Below, piece by piece: positions 29,548 to 47,768 of a stretch of 64,000 bases of DNA. Position 1 is the first letter of the stretch. The number at the start of each line of letters is the position of its first letter. Both the position numbers and the translations under genes were made by a program. Source of the DNA: Curvularia clavata (Eukaryota); NCBI GenBank assembly GCA_023920165.1, contig CP089276.1, positions 434,001-498,000 of the forward strand, in the 5' to 3' direction. The notes under the pieces are model-generated. The model was not told where the DNA came from and searched no databases. It saw only the letters and a list, made by a program, of their open reading frames with translations.

Positions 29548-32500
29548 GATTGCGAAATCAAAGGTTCCTTGCTCTTAAACAATGAATGGTCTTGACACGA
29601 AACGAAGTGCGAGAAAAGGACAATCGGGCGTGGAAGCGGGTTGAAAATCCAGGAAAGAGTGACTGGATGATTCAAAGAAAGTGGCGTCCGAAGACAGATG
29701 GATAGCGAGTGTGAGAAGGAATGGTGCCTTGCGGTAGAGAAGAAAAATCAAGGAGCGGAGGGGAGCAGTATATGAACTTCCCGGGCGTGCATGGCGGGCG
29801 GGGGGCCAAGCATAGTGTGGGTTGCTATTGGCAGCACAGATGAGTGAGGTCGACAGGCCCCTGGCGGCTGTTAATTTCGTTCAGGAACAACCGGTGACAG
29901 GGGCCAGTAGGTGGGCAGCATTAGCCAGGTACGCTGCCCAGGGGCGTCTCCCGGCCAGCCACTCACAGACGCCCACGGCCAACGTCGCCTGCGCCGCCCG
30001 CACGCCGTCACCGCTACGCTTTTCGCCATGCCATTGCAAATCAGCGAAGCCGCCGGGCGACAGCGCACCACGCCGCACCATGCATGTCTGCTCTCTCACT
30101 CGCGCCGTCGTCTGCGGGCCCACGGCCTGCCGCACAAGTCAGGCGCCCAGCTGCCTCTGAACCCCATCTTTTTTTGCTCGCCAGCGGCCCCCTTGCCATG
30201 GTGTTTCATGGCGCTTGGCCAGAATAGAAGCCGGCTAAGCGCAGATCCTCCCTGCCACCACATGCAGGCGGGTACCTCGCAGAATCCAGTATGGGCCCTG
30301 TCGGCGAGCATGCCCCATTGCGCTCCTTCGAGCCTGCTCCAGAACCGCCTGCAAAGGCGATTTCGGCCTATTTCCCACCACCGGCGCTATTCTCCAGAGC
30401 ACAATGCCATGCCTTTGTGGTACCAGTCGCTGCGCCACCATCGGCTTCCGCTATCATGACTGGCGGCGACGACGACGCTTTGGTGATGCTTTGTCGATAG
30501 GCGTGTGGCTCGGGGAACGGGGCATCGGTGGATCGACTGGTTGACGCCTTTGTGCAAGCGTGGGTCATGGTGCGACGCGCGACCTGCAGCCAGCGCCCTG
30601 CGCCCTCGCCTTCACAAGTCTGCACAAAAGAACCAAAGACGCCCTCACCGTCTGTTAGCATGAATCGACGACGCGCAAGCCACCACTGGCTCGTCATTGG
30701 CGTTGGCTCTGCGCCGCATCGTCATGGGCGATTGCGAATCAACGGTGCGCCAACCGAAGGCCTCAGTGCTTACTCGGCACCTTTCATAGTAGTCGCACAG
30801 TCGGTGGTTGCACAGCAGCTTCCCTTCAGCTCCGAGACATGCCCTCGCCGTCTTTCCGTCGTCGCATAACACACAGCCACAGTCGGCCGTGGGGTGTCGG
30901 TCTCAGGCTGTTGCAAGATGGTCGGATACCCCTAATTCCCAATCTGGTCGTCGCTGTCACAATCGTCGGCATCGGCTTTTGCGTACCGGTTTGCGATGCC
31001 GTAGGGGTCAAGGTGCCCGGGTGCCAGGTGCTGGGCCCACCAAAGTTGCCTTTTCCGTGCCGGGTCCCTGTTGTCTCTTGCAATGCAATGCACCGGGAAC
31101 ATGGCATGTTCTCGACTCTCAGCGAACATGCACCCCATTGCTCGGAAATGAGGGCGATCCGTCACTGTTTCCACTTCGTTTCTGGTCTGTGTCTTGATGC
31201 CCTCGCTCGTCACTGGCTGAGCAGCCATGTCCTGACGGGGATTCGTTCCGCAATCGACATGTGCGAGGTAAATGAGGCAATATTGCAGATGAGCAACACG
31301 AACAATCCGATAAATATGGTCCAAGGAGAGAGGGCGAGGCCCAGCAGCCATCGAATGTTGTGTTGGGATATCCACAAAGGTGCGTGGTCGAGGTCCGAGG
31401 TCGTCAACAGGCCAAGCAGCGGTCATGTTGCCACAACATGGCAAGAGCCTCGCCGTCGTGTTTTTTGTTCTGGAAGGCGCCCTCGGTCGTTCACGCCAAG
31501 CACCAACGGTTGTGCATTCCAACAGTCACCGCCACACCCCTCTTGCACTGGCACGAAACACTACCCCTCTTTTGCTTCATGCCGCTTGCTTCCCACCCCC
31601 GCACCACCACGACTACTACCACCACTCTCACTGGGTGACGTACTCTGTCTGGTCCCCCTCTTGTGCGGCATCAACGACCCATACCAAGCCCTTCCCTATT
31701 ATCAAACTCGTCGCTAGCCTACCAATCTGCTGCAGCGGTTCGCCCCGCTCTTCGAAACAAAGTCTCGGGACTGACATGAAACGAAACAATAGGCCATGAC
31801 AACGTGTAACTGGTCATGTTTTCAAGACACCGTTCCGCCAGCAGGACGTCATTGTTGCTCAATCGTATTGGTCGGCCAAGACGACGTCCTTGTAGGTGGC
31901 AGATGGAGCCGCGGTACTGCAACTTGAAGGCAATATTCATGCATCCATCTCATCCTGACTACCATCTCAGCCATTTCTGTCATTCGCTGATGACCAAGCC
32001 ATCTGCAGACTTGCTTCTAGGGCCAGGTTCTGGCCTATCGATACGCTCAGCCGCATGTAACGCCTGTTTCAGATCGTCCCATGGTACTATTGAGCCACTA
32101 CATGGCACCAAGGTGTCATGCTAGCCCTACCGCCAGAGCCAAACTATGCTTGCTTTTTTTATTCTGGTCGAGCCCGGCGCCACTGGGCGAGCACCGGCGT
32201 GAAACAAAGTCTAAACCGTTGATGTGACGTATGCAGAGTTGACATCTCGACAGCATTGCGTGTCTTCTTTTGGAGAAACTTTCTGGCTAGTGCACGTGGT
32301 TGTGAAATATTTACTTTCTACATAGTTACCATTTGGAATTCTTCTTTACGCTGCCCCAACTATGATGAGTAGTCAGCGTAGTATATAACGATTATTATTC
32401 TATTGAAAATTAAATTTTATTCACGTCATCCAATAAACTCTTTCAACTTGACAGAAGCAAAATTATTGATCTTGGTATCATCTCACCCTGATAGCTGCAA

Positions 32501-35255
32501 GTCGTGATTAATCCATACACCCGTCATATACCTCATACACCCATTCCTTCCACACCTTAATCTCCATCCAGCCTACCAAATCCTTCAACCTCGGCTTGAT
32601 CCTTCACACCCTGCCCAATCCAACCTTTCTTTTCCCACCCACCTCATTCCATGTCTCCAGCCTCAAAATCTCACTCAAAATCCTGCAAACGCCACATCCC
32701 CTCTAGCCGCGCACCGTCCAAACACAAAAGAGAAAGAAAAAAAAAGGTTTCGCTCCACTAGCGCCCGCGCGCCCGACCCCGGCTTACCCGCTCCGCTGCA
32801 CAACCGCCAAACTATCTCTCGTATATGCACACAATACGAAGCGCCAGTTTTTTTAGGTCAATAGAGGAGTCTGTGCACTGGAGTGTGCGTGAGATGTTCT
32901 ATCTTTCCATGTATTATATATTATCGCCATAGCAAGCCTGAGCCCTGGATGGGTTTGTTGAATATATCATGTAGTTGTCGAGCAGCTGTTTTTATATACC
33001 TAGGTGCGAAATGGTTTTGGATTGTAGAGACGTATGAACTATATTTTGAGTTAGAAGATGTGCGATTTTATGGAATTAATGTAAGTAACTTGAGTTCAAG
33101 ACTATTGTCGAGATTTTTTTGAAGCAAGTAAGCGGAAATAGAAGAGGGGGAAAAGAGCAGGACTTGAGCTTGATGAGAACTTGGAGTTGCCCACCTAGTA
33201 TTATGCGCCCAGGAGTATTTAAATCATAAAGCCCAGCTCTCCTCTCATGTTGGATTCTTTCTTAAATAAAGGACTCAAAGACTTTGCTCGTCTTCGATTG
33301 CGATGCCACTACAGCATTTTTACATGGTCATTTCATAGAGATATGCTCCACCTCCTTCAATCGCCACTCATTCAATCCCGTTACGCTGAATATACAAATT
33401 ACCACACAAGTCCACAGCTAAACAAGGGCAAACACGTATGAGTAGCTTGTAAGGGGCCTGAAACTGCTGTGCCGCTCTCTGCCTAATCGCTGCTCGCTGC
33501 CTCGCCTTGTTCTTCAAATACAGGACGAATTGCTCGTACTTAATACTTCGCATCTACCTTTGCATTCTATTTGACTACATACTTCCTTAGCTACTCTTCT
33601 TTTTTGGATTTCTCACTACCATGACAATCGCTTCCAAGATTCATCGAAACTCTCTACCACATCCCCAAAGAAAATATCGAAAAACTAGAAGAAGAGCATA
33701 ACCCCTGAGGCAGTCGCAAGATGATACAGCATTTCGCCTCGATGCACGTTCCGTTCCAGACATCTTAGACGGATTGAAGCTGGACGAAGCCCAGGGATTT
33801 TATCAATAAGGAACTGGAGCTCAAACGATGAATAACAACAATAGCCCATGGCGCGTCTTCCACTCCGCAGATGCTGAGATACTGGAAGATCCTGATCTCT
33901 GCCTACTCACGGTTGTAGGAGCTGGTTATGACCCTGCTGCCGTGCATAGAAATACTCGGGTTCGGAAGGTTTATTTTGGATGGACAATTATGTATGCCAC
34001 AATCATCTTGGGTTTGTATCACCAGCTGGACTTGTTCTCATTAAGGATACTGGCCAGTCATAGGCCTGGAGTATTCTGGGACCCGAGAGATCACTACTAA
34101 AACGTGTCTCGTATGCGAGAGACGATTGTGAAAAGGAAATCGGAATGAAAATATTCTGATAGAACAATTATAAGAGAAAGAAGAGGTCGCATTCTGTGCA
34201 GAATCGTATCACTTTGCAATATGAACTTCTGTAGGGTGTTCACAATAATTATTATGCGTCCTTTTTTTTGTTGGCGATCCGGGAGCTGCAATGTTAATAA
34301 TGCCTCACACGTTTAGCTGAAGACCTTTGCTGATTCTGATATGATGGTACTGATCATGCAGAGGCATGGTGTTCCGAACTCTGTTCGCTAAATGTGGCGG
34401 AAAAGGGGTTCTCTGCGGAAGACGTGACGCGTTCTCGGCGGTTTGACACGCGATTCACCGAGCCACTGTTAAGCGCGTGAGAAGAGCGGCAAGGATCCTA
34501 ATGCGTGTGTACGGCATGCTGCATACAGCTTTCAACGCCATTTTTCAGAACTTACTCAAAGTAGTATCTACGCTTTACAGTCGTTGCGGTATTATGCCTC
34601 ACTGCATAAGCGCTAGTGGAATCTGTGTACTCGACCTCAGAGTGGCGTGACCAAGAGCAGTCTACACATGCACGTGTCTATACCCAGACATGATGAAGAC
34701 ACTGTGACTAAAGAATATGTACGTCCAGCGGACTGAAGCTTTTCTTACCTACTGTCAATACATCTGACTAATATTTCAAGGTCAATAGCTGTTCTGGGTA
34801 ATGACTAGCTTAAAGACGTGTCATGACTAGCCCTAGAATGCTACTCTACGAGTGCTGACGTATGTCTCTAGGATTTTGAGAATCATCCCACGTTGTTTGA
34901 AGTTTTCTTGTTATGTAGAGGTGTGGTCCAAATCGTACCGAAGCCGACCCTGGCCCATTTCCGTCTACTATTTCGATACCATGCTTCAAGAAACCACCCA
35001 TATACCTCACCTGAGTTGAAGAGAGAGAGAGAGAGCTGAAAGGACTAGCGATTGTGCAGTTTAAAACAGATACTGTGTTATTTAGCGAGATACTTCTGAG
35101 AGAAAGACGGATGCTAGTTCTGAATCTGCTAATCTAAAGTCCATGCTCTCGTCTGCAAACAGCTGGCAAACGACTCAGACGAAAAAAATTGTACTTTTTG
35201 ACGCCGCTATACCTCGATCGCTGTATCATTGACTGAGCTTGAATCAGACAAGGCT

Positions 35256-35546
35256 ACTGCGGTCCCTTCAAATTGCATGTCGTACCCGAAACCGTCGGAC
35301 AATATGTAGTAAGTAATCGTCCATACCTGCCGTTGTGAACATCGTTAGCTGCAAATATCAGGTGCCTCGGTTCAGAAAACGGCTACATACCTTCCCGCTA
35401 CGTGTGCAGTAGGAGTCCTAAGCATAACCGTTACAGCAGTTGTCCCCAGTAGAGGGCAGTTTTGTTCCAATATTGCCGTCGGGCATGCATGCGAGTGCTT
35501 GAGAGCTCAGGAGAGTGAGAGGAGAGGTCAGTAGAATAAAACGCAT
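35256..35546 (-). pseudogene. Probable disrupted small secreted cysteine-rich protein gene
   Basis: MRFILLTSPLTLLSSQALA-CMPDG...NCCNGYA*DSYC with an in-frame TAG. Canonical intron 35327-35390 (GTATGT..CTAAC..CAG), then a downstream Cys-containing frame. Confidence 0.5.
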
Positions 35547-36063
35547 TTTTGATTTTTGGCTCTTGCTTAAGTAATGCTTGCCTCGCGCTTTAATAGTAAG
35601 AATAGAAGGCGAGGAAGAGAGGTTGCGACACTCCTGTGATTTATATACTATGAGATACAAGCTTACCTGTATGATGTAAACGAATAAGGTGGGAAATTGG
35701 CAAGCCCTATTAACATAGTGGAGTCTCGGAGGTTTAATATGTAAAGCTGTACTACAGTGGGGTATCGTATTGATAACACTAAACGTACTCGTATGTAGAG
35801 AAGCGCCTATTGTTGTAATAACTGACTCTCATCCCCTGTCCCCAAGTAAGCCGGATGTGTAGGAAAATCATTGCTGATAGCATCTACAAGCTTTCTGCTT
35901 CCTGAAGTGCTAGTCTTATACGTTAGGCATCATGTTCTTTGAGACACCTTCTCCATGGTTTCACCACGCAAATAGCAAGATATACGGATCAACTACGCAT
36001 TTGAATTGGGCTGCGCGACAGTGTATAGCAGTAGTAAGAACGAGAAGTCTATAGTGACCAAGA

Positions 36064-39000
36064 TTACTGGGCCTGACTAAATTTAAGTACAACCACACGC
36101 CCTGTCACACTTCCAAAACATATCATGTTCCCATGTTCTGCTTCAGTATAAGGCCGATACTCTACCGGAAGCCATAGGATGGGCCGATTTTGAACCAATA
36201 CCCAGTCATGCTCTCTTCCGATAGAGTATACTCGTAGACGTTGGAGGAATATTGGTTCAGGCATTACAGGAATAGTTGGAGTAGACCAGAGATGCGAAGG
36301 CAAAATGATTTCACCTTTGTTAGTGCGGATTGTCCGACCATCTGGAGAGAATTCAACGTCGAGAGTCGGTGAAGGCTGATCTATCACCCAGCGACACCGG
36401 CCTGTTGCTGTATCCCATAGCTTCAATCTCTTTTGGTAAGATGCTGTAGCAACCAGTTTTGAGTCTGGCGAGAATGCTACCACAAAAATATGATCTAGGC
36501 CACCCTTTGATAATACTGTATAGCCCTGACCTGTTATGTCCCACAGCCACGTTTCACCGTATTCATACACGGAGGCAACGAGCTGCCTGTCTGGAGAGAA
36601 TCTCACCGTTTCCACAGGATTAGAGCTGCGTTTTGATACACCGCAGTGGCCTTCTGTCTCCCAAATCCGCAATGTAAAGTCGTACGATGCTGAAGCAACC
36701 AGTTTCCCATCTGGCGAGAACGCTACTGCGACAACTACCGATGAGTGGCCCTCTAATACTCTGCAGCTTCGATCTGCTATATTCCATAGCTGTAACGCAT
36801 AGTCGACAGATACTAAAGCAAGTAGCTGGCTGTCTGGCGAGAAAGTTACGCTTTTAACCTTGTCCGAAAAGCCCTCCAATAGTCTGCGGTCTGGATCTGC
36901 TACATTCTGCAGCCGCAATTCATAATCGTCAGATACCGAGGCAACGTAGTGGCCATCTGGAGATAATTCCACTTTACTGACACCACCCGAGCAACCCTCT
37001 AACAGCTGGGAATAGTCGCCTGTAGCCGTGTTCCATAGCCACACTGTGCCATCTTTAGATACTAAAGTGATCAGTTGCCCGTATGAGGAGAAGACTAGCG
37101 TTATAGCCTCACTCGACTGCACCTTGCGGCAGTGGCCTGTGGCAGTCTCCCATAGTCTCACTGTGCCGTCGTCGGCTGCTGAGGCAATCAGCTTCCCATC
37201 AGGAGAGAAGACTACTGCATATACAAAATAGAAGTATGAGTCACCATCTAGCATCTGGCAACAGCAGCCTGTAGCAGTCTCCCATAGTCTCACCGTGCCG
37301 TCGTCGGATACTGAAGCGACTAGCTTCCCATCTGGGGAGAAGACGACTGCCCTAACTCGATATGAGCGACACTCTAGCACCTGGCGACAGCAACCTGTTG
37401 CGGTCTCCCATAGCCTGACTGTACAATCATCGGACGCTGAAGCAACTAGCTGCCCGTCCGGTGAGAACGCTACCATCCTAACGGGTCCTGAGTGACCTTT
37501 AAGCACGCTATAACACTGACCTGTGACTGCCTCCCACAGCCACACTGTACCGTCGTAGAATGCTGAAGCGACTAGCTTTCCATCTGGAGAGAACACTACT
37601 GCAATAAAATCATCTGAGTGGCTCTCTAGTGTGCTCCGGCATGCGTTCCATTCCGTGTCCCTCCCCAAAACCATCTCCACGACTTGCGGCACCTGCTTTA
37701 CAAACATTTTCCGTACGAGGCTAGCCTCAGGCGAGAAAACAAGAGCAGATGAGTATATCTGGAGGGGTGCTTCCTTAAGTATGGATACGAATCGCAGCAC
37801 GAATCGATGTGCATCGCGGAGAAAGCATGCAACAGTACTTTCAGACAGCTAGAACTCAAGTCAGCGTCAAACGCTATTTTCGGCTCATTAGGAAAGGCCT
37901 ACCGCTGCCAGACTTTGCAGCCTCGCCACTAATCGCACGCATAGGCCTGTCTCTTGGATGAGGCTCATAACTTCGAGCCAGTGAAGGAAGTGTTTCTCAA
38001 GGAATCGATGTGCAATACCTCCATCTTCAATGTTGCACCCGCTACGTTCTAGGTGGGTTGCCCAGTAGCGACACGCATATTGGAGCTCGGGAGATATGCT
38101 AGCCATGATTACATCCTCTTCAATCTCACCTCTTAACACCCCAGGCTCAGAAAGACTGCATATATCTTGTCGAAGGCCGCTTGATGCAGACATAAGCTCC
38201 AAGCAGCGCGACGCCAGCGTCTTGTGTGCGCTCTTTTCGTCGACCCGAAAGTTTTCGTCACTACATCTCTCTTTATTGAACAAGAAGTCGCGGAGCGAAG
38301 GGTGGTGTAGGCGGACGGGTAGGTCAAAATCGTTTGGGATGTCAAGAATTGCGTGGAGATCTTCCAGTATCGGCCGAATCCCCTCTGCAACACGTAGCAG
38401 TTGATCTAGAGATTTTGTGGAGAGCGGAGATAACAGTACTACTATGCTTCCAAGAATATAACGAATTGCACTAGATTGCTCTTCTTTTTCTTCGTCCATG
38501 TAGTCTCGAATTGAGTTCTGTAGCACTGTAGTGTAGAGCTCGTTAAGGTGCTTCTCTGGGGCGACAGAGGTAGCAGTATCTCTGCAAAGTATCGTTTCGA
38601 GTCTCTTAGGGGCACGCCCCTTTCCCTCTCGGATAAAGCGACAGGCTGTTTCAGCCCAGATGAAGCGGCTGCTTGCACTCTCAACGAGCTTCGTGACTAT
38701 CTCCGGACCTGGCCAACCATCTCTTAGGCAACGTTCCTGTGCAATGCTTTGAAGGTTCTCTCGCAGAAAAAGGCCTATATCGTGGTCAACAACGGACTGC
38801 GATATATCGTGCAGCACAAAGTCCTGATGGTCTCCATCTGCCATTTGCTTAAACTGATAGCGAATCGGTACTTCCGGCCTACTTGTCAGCAGCACTCGCA
38901 GCTGGGCCGTGATGGATCGAGTCTCGGCCAACAGCTGCAAGATGATGCGGATGTTATTGTCGTTATCGCACTCGTCAAGCGCGTCAATGACTATAACATA

Positions 39001-39573
39001 TGATTCAGCCATACACAGCTTTAACAGCGGACGGCAAACGAGTTGCTGCCATTGATCTCTAAGTGACAAGTTGACGATATCGCTGCGCTCTGTAACAGCG
39101 TTACATATGTGCTTCCGCAATGCTGGGACGCTGTGCGCAAGCTGCACCGCGAGACTCGTCACAAATCTAGCTGCGTGACCAACATCGCCGCCACCTCGGG
39201 AAAAGAAGAAGCTGGCTGCAAGGCGCTGTTTGTCATAGTAGCTGCGTGCGACTGTCCGCGCGATAGTTGACTTGCCCGTCCCTGCCAGCCCGCTCAACCA
39301 GAAGATGCGCCGCTCGTCTTGCCCATCTACCCATTTGTATATCTCGCGGAGGAGGTCGACACGAGTACCGAGGAGGCAGCCTTGCTCATGCTGCTTGCTG
39401 TACGCATTGAAGGGCGCGTCTTGGGCGTAGGGTAAGTGATGGAGGGGGTCATCAACCCTCACGTGATAGCTGTCGCCCAGATGGGCTTTGGCGCCATCGT
39501 TGATATTGACATTGCCGTAACGGTGGCCCAGCGAACGTTCGCTCCCGATATTCAGTTCACCGGGATAGGCCAT
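36064..39573 (-). CDS. NACHT-WD40 NLR (NWD2/HET-E-like) with N-terminal HET-s-related amyloid motif; exons 39573-37903 and 37848-36064
   Basis: CLLGTRVDLL, Walker A GLAGTGKST, ASFFFSR, Walker B IVIDALDEC, LTSRPE, HHPSLRDFL, YACRYW and FLHWLE. Intron 37849-37902 joins to RDAHRF..APLQIY.SALVFSP, followed by about 10 WD40 repeats (AFSPDG.LVASAS.D.TVRLWE). Confidence 0.95.
36350..37630 (-). repeat. Tandem WD40 repeat array (~126-nt units)
   Basis: Near-identical DNA units, e.g. gtctcccatagtctcac(t/c)gtgccgtcgtcgg at ~37145 and ~37277. Later units are more degenerate. Confidence 0.85.
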
Positions 39574-39858
39574 GGAACAAGCAGCATTGAAAAGAAGATA
39601 GGGATGTGGAAGAGATAGAGGGAGGTTTACAGCCGTCCTTGCGATTGGTGCCGCTCAGCCTCGCCCCCATTCGCTTAACCCTGCAAGCAAGCGGAGGCTC
39701 AGCGTGTCGGAAGCTGTTGTCGTTGACCGGTAGGGGCTGAGACATGGGCGTGGCATAGCCTTACTCGTGCTCATATCTGCGTCTGAGTAGCACATATTAA
39801 TTATCTCTGAGCCTCCCCATCCATATCCTCGTGTGTCACTTCGCTTTTTACATGCTAC

Positions 39859-40701
39859 ATGGCCGAGCCGTTTGGAATCGCTGCTGGCGCTATAGGCATC
39901 ACTGCTGCCTTCACCGCCTGTGTCGACTGTTTCGACTACGTGCAACATAGCCGCCACTTTGGTCGAGATTACCAGACCGAATTGATAAGCCTCGACTGTG
40001 CTAGGCTTCGGCTAACTCGCTGGGGGGAGGCTGTAAACATCCATGAAGATCCAAACCTAGGGAGGCCAAATGCAAGAGCTTCTGAAGTACAGGTAGTGCA
40101 GGGCGCACTACTACAGATCTTGGTGCTCTTCGCGGACACAGAGAAGATCTCAAATAAGTACCGGTTAGAAAGGACGGCCGGCGACAATCTTGCCCTACTG
40201 GCACCTAACGATCTTGAGCCCACCGTTTTGGGGCTTCGAAACAAGGTGAAGGAATTGGCAGTTGGGCGCCAGAAAAGAGCCAGCATTCTTAAGACGACCA
40301 GCTGGGCGCTTTACCATCGCTCGCAACTCAAAGACCTAGTCAGTGGGATCACCTCATTGCTCGACAGCATCGAAAAGATATTCCCCGCCCCCGAGAAGAT
40401 GTCCACGCTTGTCAAGCAGGAGGCAGCAGCAATGAGCAATCCACAGGAGCTCGAGGTCATTAGGAGTGCAGCACCCGGTGTCGACGATCTATTACTGGCT
40501 GCTGTGAAGGAGGTCCTTACCGGACACCAATACCTAAAAGTCACCATTAAGGGAAAGGCACACACAGGCGATAGTTATAGCAATGACTGGAGAGGCAAAG
40601 GGCAAGGGGCATCTCATGTATACGAACACGTATTCGTCGATGAGAAAGGGAAGGCACAGGTCGGTAATAGGTATGGCGAAAAAGATTTCTGGGATGACTA
40701 G
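39859..40701 (+). CDS. het-S: HET-S homologue: HeLo membrane-disrupting domain + C-terminal two-repeat prion-forming domain
   Basis: MAEPFGIAAGAIGITAAFTACVDCFDYVQ..RHFGRDY...RLTRWGEAV, WALY..LKDLV..I..L (HeLo). Tail GHQYLKVTIKGKAHTGDSY...SHVYEHVFVDEKGKAQVGNRYGEKDFWDD resembles the HET-s C-terminus GNEYGGKGFWDN. Confidence 0.92.
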   Translation: MAEPFGIAAGAIGITAAFTACVDCFDYVQHSRHFGRDYQTELISLDCARLRLTRWGEAVNIHEDPNLGRPNARASEVQVVQGALLQILVLFADTEKISNKYRLERTAGDNLALLAPNDLEPTVLGLRNKVKELAVGRQKRASILKTTSWALYHRSQLKDLVSGITSLLDSIEKIFPAPEKMSTLVKQEAAAMSNPQELEVIRSAAPGVDDLLLAAVKEVLTGHQYLKVTIKGKAHTGDSYSNDWRGKGQGASHVYEHVFVDEKGKAQVGNRYGEKDFWDD

Positions 40702-41313: not shown

Positions 41314-41498
41314 GCCCCCTTCCGAATTCGGCAATCCGAGCCTGCTTTCTGAACCCGTTTCATACCCGTGGATGTGTACTGCAAGCCTTGACACTGCGTT
41401 GATCAACACACAATAGGATCGCTACAGTATATACTATCTCGAAAGCCTGAAGACATGGCAAGGTCCATAGATTCTGCACCGACAACACAATTTCCACC

Positions 41499-42434
41499 AT
41501 GAGCGCGTCCGTTGCTTCAGCTCCTGTTGACAGGAAACAACCTTTCCGAAGTCTTAATACAACGCCTAATACAGCGGCTCCCAAGAAATCCCCAACAGCT
41601 ATCGTATCATTAGTTTCGGGTGCTGTCGCTGGAGGTGTTGAAGCAACAGCAACATATCCGTTCGAATTCGCCAAAACACGCGCACAGCTCCAAGTGGGTG
41701 CCTCCGGCTCAAGAAACCCTTTTACTGTTCTTGCCCAAGTCGCCAAACAAGACGGATTCGGGGCTATATACACTGGCTGCTCTACTTTGATTGTCGGCAC
41801 TGCTTTCAAAGCCGGCGTCCGCTTCCTCTCTTTCGACTCCATCCGCACCCGCCTCGCCGATGAACGCGGGGTACTCTCTCCAGCTCGCGGCTTATTAGCT
41901 GGCATGCTAGCCGGCGCAGTCGAAAGCATCGTCGCAGTTACACCAACAGAGCGTGTAAAGACTGCTCTGATCGATAATGCAAAAAATGGCATGGAACGCT
42001 ACCGCGGAGGCTTTCATGCTTCAAGAGTCATTCTGCAAACCGATGGTATAGCTGGGCTATATCGAGGGCTGGTATCCACCACGGCAAAGCAATCAGCTAC
42101 TTCGGCTGTTCGCATGGGATCATACAATGTTCTGAAGGAGTTTGCGCGACGAAAGAACCTCCCCCAGAACAGCGCAGTTACTTTTGGCATGGGTGCTGTC
42201 GCTGGTGTTATCACCGTGTATGCAACACAGCCTTTCGATACTATCAAAACACAGGCACAAAGTGCTCAAGGCGCGAGCACGAAGCATGCTTTCCGAAGTG
42301 TCTTGATGAAGGGAGGAGTGCGAGGCTTCTGGAGTGGTAGCACGATGCGTTTGGGCAGGCTGGTCTTGAGCGGCGGCATTGTATTCACGGTTTATGAGAA
42401 GGTTGCAGACATATTGACGCCCTCCACTCTATAG
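41499..42434 (+). CDS. Mitochondrial carrier family protein (tricarboxylate/citrate carrier-like)
   Basis: Three PxE/DxxKT signature motifs (YPFEFAKT, TPTERVKT, QPFDTIKT), plus KAGVRF, KQSATSAVR and RLGRL typical of CTP1-like carriers. Single exon. Confidence 0.9.
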   Translation: MSASVASAPVDRKQPFRSLNTTPNTAAPKKSPTAIVSLVSGAVAGGVEATATYPFEFAKTRAQLQVGASGSRNPFTVLAQVAKQDGFGAIYTGCSTLIVGTAFKAGVRFLSFDSIRTRLADERGVLSPARGLLAGMLAGAVESIVAVTPTERVKTALIDNAKNGMERYRGGFHASRVILQTDGIAGLYRGLVSTTAKQSATSAVRMGSYNVLKEFARRKNLPQNSAVTFGMGAVAGVITVYATQPFDTIKTQAQSAQGASTKHAFRSVLMKGGVRGFWSGSTMRLGRLVLSGGIVFTVYEKVADILTPSTL

Positions 42435-43139: not shown

Positions 43140-44820
43140 ATGACAGAAAAGCGTTCCGTCGACATCGTTGACGAGAAGACAGCCGATGCGGAGTTCAAGG
43201 AAATTGTCGCCGATCGCAATGGTCAAATCACACCCCAGCAGATACAGGCCCGCTTTGAGACCCTTCGTCACTTGAGCGAAGACCAGATGGCTGCATTGAA
43301 CAAGCAGCTCGTCAAGAAGCTTGATTGGAGACTCATGCCTTGCATCACCCTCATGTTCCTCATGAAGTAAGATTCTGCCTAGCGAGACACGGTCTGTTCG
43401 TGAGCAAAGTTAACAATCGACCCAGTTATCTCGACCGTATTAACGTTTCCAATGCACGCCTTGCCGGGCTTCAAAAAGATCTACACATGACTGACACTTT
43501 ATGGAATACCGGCATCTCGACATTCTACGTGGGCTACCTCATCGGTCAACTTCCTGGTAACTTGTGGCTTGCCAAAGCGGATCCAAGGTGGCTTTTGCCC
43601 TCAATGATGATGGCCTGGAGTATTGGGACGATTTGTATGCCGGCCATGACCAATGGCGCAGGTTTCGCAGTATGCCGCTTCTTTATCGGCCTAGCTGAGG
43701 CGCCGTTCTTCCCAGGCATAACACTTAGTAAGTCCCTGTTCGCATCTCAAACACGATCCTACGAACCACAGTACTAATGAAACTAGTGACTTCATCATGG
43801 TACACCAAAGAAGAGAATCCGATGCGCATGGCGATCTGGCATGCAGGAAACACCATTTCCAATATCTTGTCCGGATTCTTGGCTGCAGCCATCCTTGAGA
43901 ACATGGATAACATCCTCAATCTCCACGCGTGGCAGTGGTTCTTCATAATTGAGGGCGCTGTCTCTATTCTTGTCGCAGGTGGTGCTTACTTTCTCCTTCC
44001 ATCATGGCCGCATAACACGAAGTGGTTGTCAAAGGAGGAGTCGGAGATGGCGCAATACCGAGTCCAGGTGTCCAATGGTGGCCATGACGAGGAAATTGGT
44101 GGTACTTGGGATGGGTTCAAGGATGCTGCCAAAGATCCATTTACGTGGTTCTTCTGCCTGATGCACTTCGCCCTCGTCACTGCGCAGAGTTTCAAAGACT
44201 TCCTACCATCAGTATGTTATAAACCTGCAACATCTCTTGTGGTTCTCACAACTGACCGTTCTGCTTTACAGATCATGAAGACGTTCAATTTCGACAAACT
44301 CACCACCTACCTTGTCCAGGCTCCTCCCTACGCCATCGCTTACGCCACCGCATGCGGTCTCGCATACTCCTCCGGCCGCTTCCAAGAGTCTTACTACCAC
44401 ATCGTCATCCCAATACTCTTCAGCGCGGCAGGCTGCAGTATGCTCATTGGAACTCTCAACATTGGCGCCCGCTACTTTGGCCTCGTTCTCCTCATCAGTG
44501 GTACCTACTCCGGTCTTAATCTTCAACTGAGCTGGGAAACAACACTCGTGCCAGCTCCACGCAGCAAGAAAGCAGCGCTTATTGCTATCGCCAATTGTAT
44601 CAGCCAAGTCAGTCATTGGTTTAGCCCTTACTTCTTCCCAACGTCCCAAGAGCCGTTTTACAGGCTGGGTGGTGGCTTGATCCTGGTAGGATGCCTCCTT
44701 TGCGTGGTCTCCTCAAGCTTGGTAAAGTGGCGCGCGAAGAGGTTGAACAAGAAGCTGGATGAATCAGAGGGTTGGTCGGAGCATGGAGGTGTGGAGCGTG
44801 GATGGAGATATGTCTACTGA
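43140..44820 (+). CDS. MFS transporter, anion:cation symporter (Dal5/Tna1-like) family; introns 43367-43425, 43728-43786, 44212-44271
   Basis: KKLDWRLMP..LMFLMNYLDRINVSNARLAGL, RFFIGLAEAPFFPG, SWYTKEE..R, WQWFFIIEG and QAPPY. GT-AG introns restore the frame. Confidence 0.92.
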
Positions 44821-45248: not shown

Positions 45249-46220
45249 TCATCGTCTGCGCTTTGTTTCACCTCCCTTATCATTCTTCCAGCTTCCAGCG
45301 TAATGATGGGTCACAAGTTGTGGCGGTAGAAGTGCTTCTTGTTCTGGGGTGTATTTGTTTGCAGTCGCTGCAAATGAGCGGCCTGGCATGATTAAAACGT
45401 CCCCGATCGACACTGGCTGCATGATACTATGCACCTCGGTTGTGTTGATCGTATATTGTTCTTTCTCCAAGCTTTTGAACACACTTGTCGTTAAGCGTCG
45501 GGGACCTGTAAAGTCTACAACGTCTCCCATCATTTCTAATGTAAGACCCTCAACCGGGACCTGATATTTGGCAGTCTTTTGCCGTACTTCATCCAGAATG
45601 TCGTCAACCACCTGCATCATATGGGATGACCGGGGCTTGGACATTATAGTCCAGCTGGCGAATTGGCGCCTAAAGGGCTCTGGCCACCCCGCATCAAACT
45701 CCCATCCCACCACAAGTGAAACGTCTTGATGTTCGACTGGCACCCATTCATCGATAGGTACACCTTCACAAGATACGTCTAAATCATACCAGATGCCGCC
45801 TTGATCCCAAAGTAACAGATAGCGCAGCATGTCGGCTTTGTAGATAGGGATAGAGAATGCAAGGTAGGTTTGAACAATGTCGGGGCGGAATGCAAACGTT
45901 TTACGGACGTAGTCATCGCCGCTTTCATCCGTAATAAAGTGTGCTTGATATTCAGGATTGCCTTTGATGCAGGTGTCGGTCCAGTTGCGCACTTCGTTGG
46001 AGATGCCTTTGGGGCCCAGCTTATACCAGATAAGTCTTGGGATTCCATTTCTGTTGTGATGTAGGGCTTCTGAGGCTCCAGGAGCTTCAGCGGTTGCTGA
46101 CGTAGGAGCGATAAATTTGCCTTGGATAAAAACAAAGTGATAAACCAAACCGATTGTGCACAACGCAATCAGCGTGTAGTAATTAAAGACTTTGGCCAGT
46201 TGCGGTGGTCGCGGCAACAT
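45249..46220 (-). CDS. Glycosyltransferase family 32 (Och1-like alpha-1,6-mannosyltransferase)
   Basis: N-terminal type-II membrane anchor, IPRLIW, KADMLRYLLL...GGIWYDLDV (DxD), TGP..LT and HHYAGSWK. Confidence 0.88.
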   Translation of the reverse strand: MLPRPPQLAKVFNYYTLIALCTIGLVYHFVFIQGKFIAPTSATAEAPGASEALHHNRNGIPRLIWYKLGPKGISNEVRNWTDTCIKGNPEYQAHFITDESGDDYVRKTFAFRPDIVQTYLAFSIPIYKADMLRYLLLWDQGGIWYDLDVSCEGVPIDEWVPVEHQDVSLVVGWEFDAGWPEPFRRQFASWTIMSKPRSSHMMQVVDDILDEVRQKTAKYQVPVEGLTLEMMGDVVDFTGPRRLTTSVFKSLEKEQYTINTTEVHSIMQPVSIGDVLIMPGRSFAATANKYTPEQEALLPPQLVTHHYAGSWKNDKGGETKRRR

Positions 46221-47768
46221 CTTGAAATCTTGAAAGAAAGACTGAGAGAGACTTCTCGTTGAAGTCCTAGCCAAGATAATTCGCTGGTTGGGACATCTAA
46301 TTATTCACTCATAACATGACGCTAGAGATCCTTTAGGCACGGCTTATCTATTACTCTTGCTACGCCGCATGCATGCGCAAGGGTGTCATGTCACGCACAC
46401 GCTCATGTTAGTGGCTCGGAAGCGACACTCGCAGGGCTGTATCCAAAATAGTTTGACAAGCGTCCAATGATGGCGATTGATTTCAGGGATCCTTTCGCCT
46501 CCTGTGTGGGGGCCGATAATCTCACCAGCCATGCAAGCGCCTTAATACCCGTTCCGTCACCCTTGTACCTTACGAAAGCCAAGAGGGGTTACACTAACAA
46601 AGTCGTAGATGAGCCGCATAGGCTATATTTACTAAAGAAACCGAGATAGTTGAGTTAGATGGCTGGTGACAAAACCACGCGAGAACCATCCGTGCGGTTG
46701 CAAACGAGGCGGATAGGCCATATTTTCACGATGCACTCGACCGTCCCAACCCCCAATCGACGCACTTTACTCTCACAACCAGGAATGCGATGTTAATAGG
46801 AAGGATTCTTGAGCTTGTAAGCGCTGCATGGGAAAGCGCTTCTGTGCTTCCTCCATGCGCTTTGAGACCTTTGAAAGCAAATTGCACTGGTTGTGCGTGC
46901 GTTTGTATTGACCCTTCGCACATCTAGCCACCCGTGATCTCACTCAGTCTGCATTACCTTTTGCCGGCCATCTGTAATCTTGCATTTGACATGGTTATTT
47001 TTGCTGCTTTATCGAACCCGTCTTTGTCTGGTCTCTGAAGCAGATTCCCTTTCCTATGGCTCACCCGATCGAATGGACTTTGGCCACTGTACTATTCACA
47101 TATCTATCTGATCACATGGAATTCTCCAGCACACTGCCCTTTCAAATTGCCAGATACATTACCAGCGGTCCGACATATGTCGAGCTGATTTGATTTGCAG
47201 AGTTCAAGTGCCCTAGCAGCACCAGGATTGTGCAAAACTGCTGCAACACTTGCTATACACACTAGATCCCATTAGTTATGATCTGCTAATTGTATCACGA
47301 GCCCTTAAAAATAAGTCAGTAGTAGTGACGTCAGAGCATGCATCTACCTGTGGCCTGGTACTAGGGCACTCAGCTAGCTAGATTTTACACCTACCAGCGA
47401 TCAGAGAAACTAGATAGCCGTGTAGGCATACTAGTCTCGGCCGAGGTGTTCTCCACGCACAACTGTTTCGCATATGTGACTATACATGCTGCACATATTG
47501 TTGCCGGTTAGTTTCCTAATACGAGATCACTTTAATTAAAATCCAGTAAATTAAGAAGAAGATCGGCAAACTCGGTAATGCCAAAAGGTCGATCCCAAGT
47601 ACCCACTGTACTTTCTGACTCTCCAACGATGACTACATTGCATCTATGGTCGTGATTCACCATCCGACAGTCCGCTGCGAAAATGTGAACATAAATGTCC
47701 TTGCCCACATTGGGCTTTTCAAGGTCGCCTCTAGTTTTGCAGAACCCCTCTCTCTGCTTTGATTCGTT

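Follow-up and report, generated by a model that had tools for sequence, protein, structure and literature searches.

Does a pair of divergent genes in the plant-associated Pleosporales fungus Curvularia clavata, both annotated just as hypothetical, form a unit in which a receptor triggers cell death through an amyloid motif shared with its neighbour? This question is raised by positions 36064-40701 of a 64,000-nucleotide stretch of the genome (contig CP089276.1, positions 434,001-498,000 of the forward strand; the whole stretch is hereafter called the window). The locus holds a head-to-head pair consisting of a gene for a HeLo-domain protein of the HET-S type (39859-40701, plus strand) and a gene for a NOD-like receptor (NLR) with NACHT and WD40 domains (39573-36064, minus strand). 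A single motif at the N-terminus of the receptor (R0) matches two repeats at the C-terminus of the HeLo protein (R1 and R2). The evidence presented below indicates that the pair is very probably an NLR/HeLo module of the nwd2/het-S type for cell death by amyloid signalling, intact and transcribed, belonging to subclass HRAM3 of the amyloid motifs related to HET-s (HRAM).

Gene models, domains and transcription

Three long open reading frames (ORFs) occur in the region: 39859-40701 (plus strand, 280 amino acids, aa), 37888-39573 (minus strand, 561 aa) and 36064-37707 (minus strand, 547 aa). Both minus-strand ORFs belong to one NLR gene and are joined in frame, across a 54-bp intron (37849-37902) with a GTAGGC 5' site, a CTGAC branch site and a TAG end (GT..AG), into a product of 1151 aa. 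The spliced model corresponds letter for letter (100% identity) to the database protein P0122, of 1151 aa, which is annotated just as a hypothetical protein of C. clavata. The two ATGs face away from each other and are separated by 285 bp (39574-39858). The features of the locus are the following:

39859-40701, plus strand: HET-S-type gene, single exon, 280 aa (P0001), stop included (ORF, Pfam, PDB 2wvo)
39874-40458, plus strand: HeLo domain, predicted to form pores (aa 6-200), with N-terminal hydrophobic segment and His33 (Pfam range, AlphaFold2 model, Foldseek)
40522-40578, plus strand: R1 repeat, aa 222-240, GHQYLKVTIKGKAHTGDSY (BLASTP; profile domain E 1e-11)
40612-40674, plus strand: R2 repeat, aa 252-272, SHVYEHVFVDEKGKAQVGNRY (profile domain E 3.2e-9)
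40675-40698, plus strand: C-terminal aromatic tail GEKDFWDD (aligned with GGKGFWDN of HET-s)
39574-39858, no strand: divergent intergenic region, 285 bp, putative bidirectional promoter (spacing)
37903-39573, minus strand: NLR exon 1, 557 codons, with R0, NACHT NTPase and helical region (ORF, spliced model)
39466-39528, minus strand: R0 motif, NLR aa 16-36, GHRYGNVNINDGAKAHLGDSY (BLASTP, profile, alignment with 13 related R0s)
38845-39345, minus strand: NPHP3_N/NACHT domain, aa 77-243 (Pfam; Walker A and B)
37849-37902, minus strand: NLR intron, 54 bp (prediction; spliced contigs of runs X1 and X17)
36064-37848, minus strand: NLR exon 2, about 11 WD40 repeats (about 36226-37620) and C-terminal extension, stop included (Pfam, repeat list)

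The first-pass annotation had placed the two starts at 39573 and 39859, about 285 bp apart, R0 at NLR aa 16-36 (39466-39528) and the beginning of R1 at 40522, and all of these positions proved exact on re-check. Profile searches bore out its domain assignments as well. The HeLo family is matched with an expectation value (E) of 1.7e-44 (152.5 bits; PF14479 cut-off 23.2), and the receptor matches NPHP3_N (2.6e-32, 112.7 bits), NACHT (9.2e-8, 32.5 bits) and WD40 (1.3e-77, 253.4 bits). The Walker A (GLAGTGKST, aa 95) and Walker B (VIVIDALDE, aa 193) motifs of the receptor are both intact, and about 11 WD40 units are listed in it. The absence of an N-terminal effector domain, also claimed at first pass, is supported because within the first 50 residues no match to a Pfam family is as good as E 0.01; NPHP3_N begins at aa 77. 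Near-identical WD repeats occur in some het NLRs; no sign of them was found in a tandem-repeat scan of the WD40 region, which returned a single 126-bp array (1.9 copies, 77% match).

The HeLo protein has 291 homologues at E<=1e-3 and aligns over aa 1-215 with the N-terminal crystal structures of Podospora HET-S/HET-s (PDB 2wvo, E 3.5e-44). A full-length AlphaFold2 (AF2) model, built on 107 relatives, has a predicted local distance difference test score (pLDDT) of 83.7, and Foldseek places it closest to 2wvo_A (E 1.1e-13, template modelling (TM) score 0.89, 36% identity). The conserved N-terminal hydrophobic segment is present. Residue 33, which distinguishes 2wvo (His) from 2wvn (Pro) in the alignment, is His as in toxic HET-S; the same column holds His in 86 of the 107 relatives, Arg in 14, other residues in 7 and Pro in none. 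A second full-length HeLo-HRAM3 protein, P0007 (yc1106_09450), is 75% identical to the window protein and bears the same species and strain label on another contig (2.9 Mb), so that the genome carries at least two HeLo-HRAM3 executioners.

The intron is spliced out in contigs from two runs belonging to two studies, X1 (2282 nt, 0 differences) and X17 (756 nt), where the joint 37848->37903 skips 54 nt (CT..AC on the plus strand). Both runs also hold the HeLo gene. On account of the spliced joint, and of the X1 HeLo contig that ends about 60 nt past the stop, these runs are taken as RNA; runs X16 and X9 cover just parts of the region. The view of the pair as an intact unit thus holds, both genes being full-length and the NLR spliced in the contigs of two runs. 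Among the X1 contigs, those coming from the NLR extend to 39613 and those of the HeLo gene begin at 39608, and a contig of X17 has a loose end at 39853. These ends hint at transcript starts, even though contigs cannot show starts, and the 285-bp spacing and the RNA-like contigs are compatible with the shared bidirectional promoter that had been put forward. A further X1 contig (1330 nt, with a higher depth of 45.9) matches just 37963-38004 and 38867-38902, in the NACHT part, with 925 other letters between, and most likely represents the mRNA of an NLR paralogue.

Strain differences are found on both sides of the locus. The HeLo allele common to X1 and X17 differs from the window at nine positions, three of which change a residue (V130M, N194D and I201V, all in the HeLo domain). 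Of the six synonymous ones, four (K231, G232, D238 and K247, the last seen in X1 and X9) map to R1 or the loop between the repeats. All four strain differences within aa 222-272, which comprise the repeats and the loop, are synonymous, as would fit constraint on the motif in this small sample. In the WD40 region (36100-37300) the runs show A749V, Y813D, V820L and Q910R against one synonymous difference; three of the four differences of X1 change the residue, and contigs break inside the repeats. This variation fits a variable sensor surface.

The R0 motif and the C-terminal repeats

The proposed alignment of R0 with the HeLo repeats was recovered in two ways. A BLASTP comparison of NLR aa 1-50 with the HeLo protein gave 12 identities in 21 positions to R1 (E 6e-5). 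Also, the R1 and R2 repeats of 106 further family members, excluding those of the window, were used to build a hidden Markov model (HMM), which was run on all 1623 six-frame stop-to-stop ORFs of at least 25 aa in the window. It matched the HeLo ORF (1.1e-20, in two domains of 1e-11 and 3.2e-9) and then the NLR N-terminus, at exactly aa 16-36 (E 4.9e-5); this was the sole extra match, the next ORF standing at 0.95. The similarity between R0 and the repeats exceeds chance.

In motif numbering, R0 reads L1 G2 H3 R4 Y5 V8 I10 K15 A16 H17 L18 G19, and it could be aligned with 13 related R0s. His occupies position 3 in R0, R1 and R2, and R0 has hydrophobic residues at 5, 8, 10, 16 and 18 together with Lys15. 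The pattern searched for in the repeats is likewise present: R1 and R2 carry Gly19 and hydrophobic residues at 5, 8, 10, 16 and 18 (Thr at 18 in R1), followed by the aromatic/diglycine tail. The repeats begin at aa 222 (40522) for R1 and aa 252 (40612) for R2, and an 11-residue loop lies between them. The family-wide consensus, from the 107 relatives, is TGHQYLNVxIKGKAQTGD ... SHxYDGVxVDxxGKALIGNKYGGKDFWDD, and the terminal GEKDFWDD of the window follows a form (GxKDFWDD) that is almost invariant across the HeLo family. Over R2 and the aromatic end, a profile of the family tail picks up the HET-s(218-289) fibril structures 2kj3/2rnm/2lbu at E 1.4e-4. The full-length AF2 model folds aa 223-272 into two blocks of short strands (4+4) with pLDDT 83-87, joined by a loop of pLDDT 61, a result on which it bears that AF2 has seen HET-s fibrils.

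R1 has 19 residues, two fewer than R0 and R2 (21 each). The two missing residues belong to the arc that lies between strands two and three, in the window as in the aligned relatives, where 21 residues are usually kept by R0 and almost always by R2. The R0 of the window has the length of R2 and the sequence of R1.

Two observations concern single contigs of relatives recovered from metagenomes. In-frame stops occur within the repeat/tail region of three of them (L005, L017 and L038), which may be decayed copies or assembly errors. In another (L019, a contig of 1227 bp) the same R2-coding stretch is found at both ends in inverted orientation (96, minus strand; 1132, plus strand), probably a hairpin artefact of assembly.

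Linkage in relatives, mechanism and alternative readings

In order to gain insight into the linkage of the two genes, related loci were recovered by a scan of metagenome contigs, which yielded 65 loci, 23 of them encoding a close relative (at least 49% identity, HeLo start present, at least 140 aa aligned). The R0s were located by regex scans, tblastn and reading of translations, and some of them have 19 residues. Among the 11 loci with at least 700 bp of upstream sequence, a divergent R0-NLR lies within 1 kb in five (L001, L007, L012, L022 and L024), and an R0 ORF or NACHT match is found about 2.9 kb off in two more (L008 and L014). R0 is also present in four of the seven loci with 330-699 bp upstream (L005, L006, L009 and L035); the remaining five have less than 330 bp and are uninformative. 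From all loci 13 R0 N-termini were extracted, with ATG-to-ATG spacing of 183-436 bp in 12 of the 13. In addition, HeLo and NLR genes have consecutive locus tags in three named genomes from three further fungal classes, those of Agyrium rufum, Trichoglossum hirsutum and Pseudogymnoascus sp. VKM F-4520; in Trichoglossum no R0 is seen at the start of the receptor as annotated. Synteny of the pair, a check proposed at first pass, recurs in relatives, and the figures agree with the published count of an adjacent NLR with one motif beside 98 of 155 HRAM HeLo genes (PMC4518210).

The R0 exon of relatives has a structure of its own. At L001, L005-L009, L012, L022, L024, L032, L035, L052 and L056 the R0 ORF mostly ends 35-58 codons after the motif start and similarity to NACHT continues in a different frame, which implies that an intron immediately follows the R0 exon; the window gene has no intron there. 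The closest NACHT-WD40 relatives of the receptor (P0123, P0143 and P0165, from Bipolaris and Paraphaeosphaeria; 58-68% identity over the aa 1-330 searched) begin with another short motif, ending ...NGSVH.G, in place of the HRAM3 R0, and so represent the same NLR chassis with a swapped signalling motif.

By homology to NWD2/HET-S of Podospora, the WD40 propeller would sense a ligand, upon which the NACHT domain would oligomerise and bring together the N-terminal R0 segments, which would fold into a HET-s-like cross-beta rung. With this rung as template, the R1-loop-R2 tail of the adjacent HeLo protein, until then disordered, would adopt a two-rung beta-solenoid, and the refolding would free the hydrophobic helix at the N-terminus of the HeLo domain for membrane insertion, presumably leading to cell death.

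Several findings weigh against this reading of the locus as an amyloid-signalling pair. Four of the 11 related loci with at least 700 bp upstream show no detectable upstream NLR (L002, L013, L016 and L020). Pair-specific co-variation is absent, since across 11 R0/tail pairs the cognate partners score no higher than shuffled ones (74.0 vs 74.1, p 0.54), indicating that the similarity of R0 and tail is family-wide and not tuned to the pair; position 3 of R0 is Asn instead of His in six of these 11 pairs. R1 has 19 instead of 21 residues and Thr at core position 18, where a hydrophobic residue is usual. The Pfam family HET-s_218-289 (PF11558) is not reached by the window tail (13.7 bits vs a cut-off of 32.2, E 0.065); it matches just 38 of the 155 HRAM proteins (PMC4518210) and so marks HRAM1, not the wider HRAM family. 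Folded alone (AF2, 19 sequences), the tail attains a pLDDT of 58 and a predicted TM score of 0.39, and a Foldseek search with this low-confidence model gives no match at E<=0.001 (best 2rnm, E 2.3, TM 0.25). For X1 and X17 the type of run is guessed, RNA being deduced from the spliced joint. Finally, a limited literature search found no experiment showing amyloid formation by an HRAM3 tail or its seeding by R0, and no bench work on HRAM3 is reported in the available portions of the 2015 study, the 2017 review and the 2022 survey.

The lack of cognate preference bears on the range of partners of the receptor. Rather than acting on its neighbour only, R0 could signal also, or mainly, to the second HeLo-HRAM3 protein, or several R0-NLRs could converge on both executioners. 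Such a network would suit the occurrence of a 75%-identical paralogue with the same species and strain label on another contig, and the fact that the R0 of the window scores about the same against the tail of this paralogue (49+43, 92) as against its own (55+38, 93). It would also suit the several NLR-side motifs found per effector-side motif in some genomes, with a mean of 5.7:1 for the HRAM3-like NLR12 class in the 2022 survey (PMC9815663). However, the R0 and R1 of the window share the ending KAH.GDSY where the paralogue has KAQAGDSF, and tight divergent linkage recurs in relatives. A network is entertained as a possibility of less weight than signalling within the pair. Because within the family R0 does not favour its own partner, a single sensor might activate two paralogous executioners in one genome; together with the conserved 19-residue R1, which may give this HRAM3 branch an asymmetric beta-solenoid with one arc shortened, outside the solved structures, this is advanced only tentatively.

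The variation in the HeLo domain could be read in another way, the gene being an allorecognition locus of the het-s/het-S type with a non-toxic prion-forming allele and not an executioner triggered only by the NLR. The closest solved relative is indeed the Podospora het-s/het-S product, and the X1/X17 alleles differ from the window by V130M, N194D and I201V. These changes are conservative. Residue 33 is His, as in toxic HET-S; no codon difference is listed for it in the runs, and it is replaced by Pro in none of the 107 relatives. The strains seen are few and come as contigs, which drop rare variants. This explanation is judged highly improbable. Equally little credence is given to a motif match that is a coincidence or relic between uncoupled neighbours, the module having decayed or the NLR acting by another route: the four loci without detectable upstream NLR, the in-frame tail stops of three metagenome relatives and the missing co-variation speak for it, but the other-species profile separates R0 from the next ORF (4.9e-5 vs 0.95), in 13 related loci a divergent ORF carries R0 at its extreme N-terminus, neither window gene is disrupted and the NLR is spliced in two runs, and strain changes in the tail are synonymous only.

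Around the NLR/HeLo module, no further NLR, HET or HeLo gene was found among the 18 long window ORFs scanned. Directly downstream of the NLR, about 4 kb (32000-36000) have a G+C content of 0.42-0.48, compared with 0.51 for the window, and contain no ORF of at least 150 aa. On the HeLo side the neighbours are ordinary genes and encode a mitochondrial carrier (41451-42434), a major facilitator superfamily transporter (43732-44820), a glycosyltransferase (45249-46304) and a cytochrome P450 (47923-49230).

Comparison with known systems

The class of system had rightly been called known at first pass, being that of nwd2/het-S. Five classes of HET-s-related amyloid motif have been described (Daskalov, Dyrka and Saupe 2015, PMC4518210), and HRAM3 is the one marked out by a His in position 3. 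With the NWD2/HET-S pair of Podospora anserina (HRAM1) the window pair shares a homologous HeLo region (aa 1-215), His33, two pseudo-repeats and a GxKxFWD tail, as well as an adjacent divergent NACHT-WD40 NLR that bears a single R0 at its N-terminus in place of an effector domain. Unlike HET-S, the window protein has His and not Asn at position 3, an R1 of 19 and not 21 residues and a PF11558 score below the cut-off. Its inter-repeat loop is of 11 residues, compared with 15 in a HET-S row of File S1 (PMC4518210). The WD repeats of the window NLR are not highly uniform (126-bp array, 77% match), and no prion allele is known for the window HeLo gene.

In Pseudogymnoascus the pair KFZ24429 (V502_01092) with V502_01091, also included in the 2015 study according to its supplement, has a HeLo protein that is 61% identical over its whole length (P0068), with the same r1 gap and adjacent locus tags. 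Its r0 as given in PMC4518210 (SGNQYRNIRINEGAKAQLGNI) is the N-terminus of P0164; it differs from the window in having Asn at position 3 of R0 and in belonging to another class, the Leotiomycetes. The named HRAM3 representative of the 2017 review (PMC5485727) is Cladophialophora psammophila W9WR11/W9XJW2, likened here by subclass label and not by sequence; the same review called for structural work on such subclasses.

A near-identical pair is found in Curvularia lunata, whose protein Coclu2_34207 and adjacent NLR occupy row 81 of File S1 (PMC4518210). The tail is near-identical, with the same two-residue r1 gap, 11-residue loop and YGEKDFWDD end, features that other relatives in File S1, which gives no class labels, share in the gap and the loop. 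The r0 of C. lunata reads LGHRYGHVSISEGAKAHLGDN and that of the window LGHRYGNVNINDGAKAHLGDS. This pair belongs to another species and shows several substitutions in r0, r1 and r2, and the comparison covers the last 80 residues and the r0 given in the supplement, not full genes. Table 1 of the same study credits Curvularia (Cochliobolus) lunata with one HRAM2 and one HRAM3; row 81 is taken as the HRAM3 entry because the other C. lunata row has Gln at position 3. By its sequence the window motif is accordingly that of the published HRAM3 class, an assignment made by elimination through this near-orthologue and apart from the authors' JTT/PAM110 clustering. The suggestion that its xHxY..G-D/N-xY form might be uncharacterised thus does not stand, His at position 3 being the mark of a published class in which a near-identical pair is already listed, while the observation itself is confirmed and its interpretation supported.

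Set beside these systems, the C. clavata pair is an ordinary new member of a catalogued family that leaves existing knowledge of nwd2/het-S unchanged. It provides one clean, expressed example of probable NLR-to-HeLo amyloid signalling in a plant-associated fungus of the Pleosporales, and could serve as a test case for HRAM3, a subclass so far defined by sequence only.

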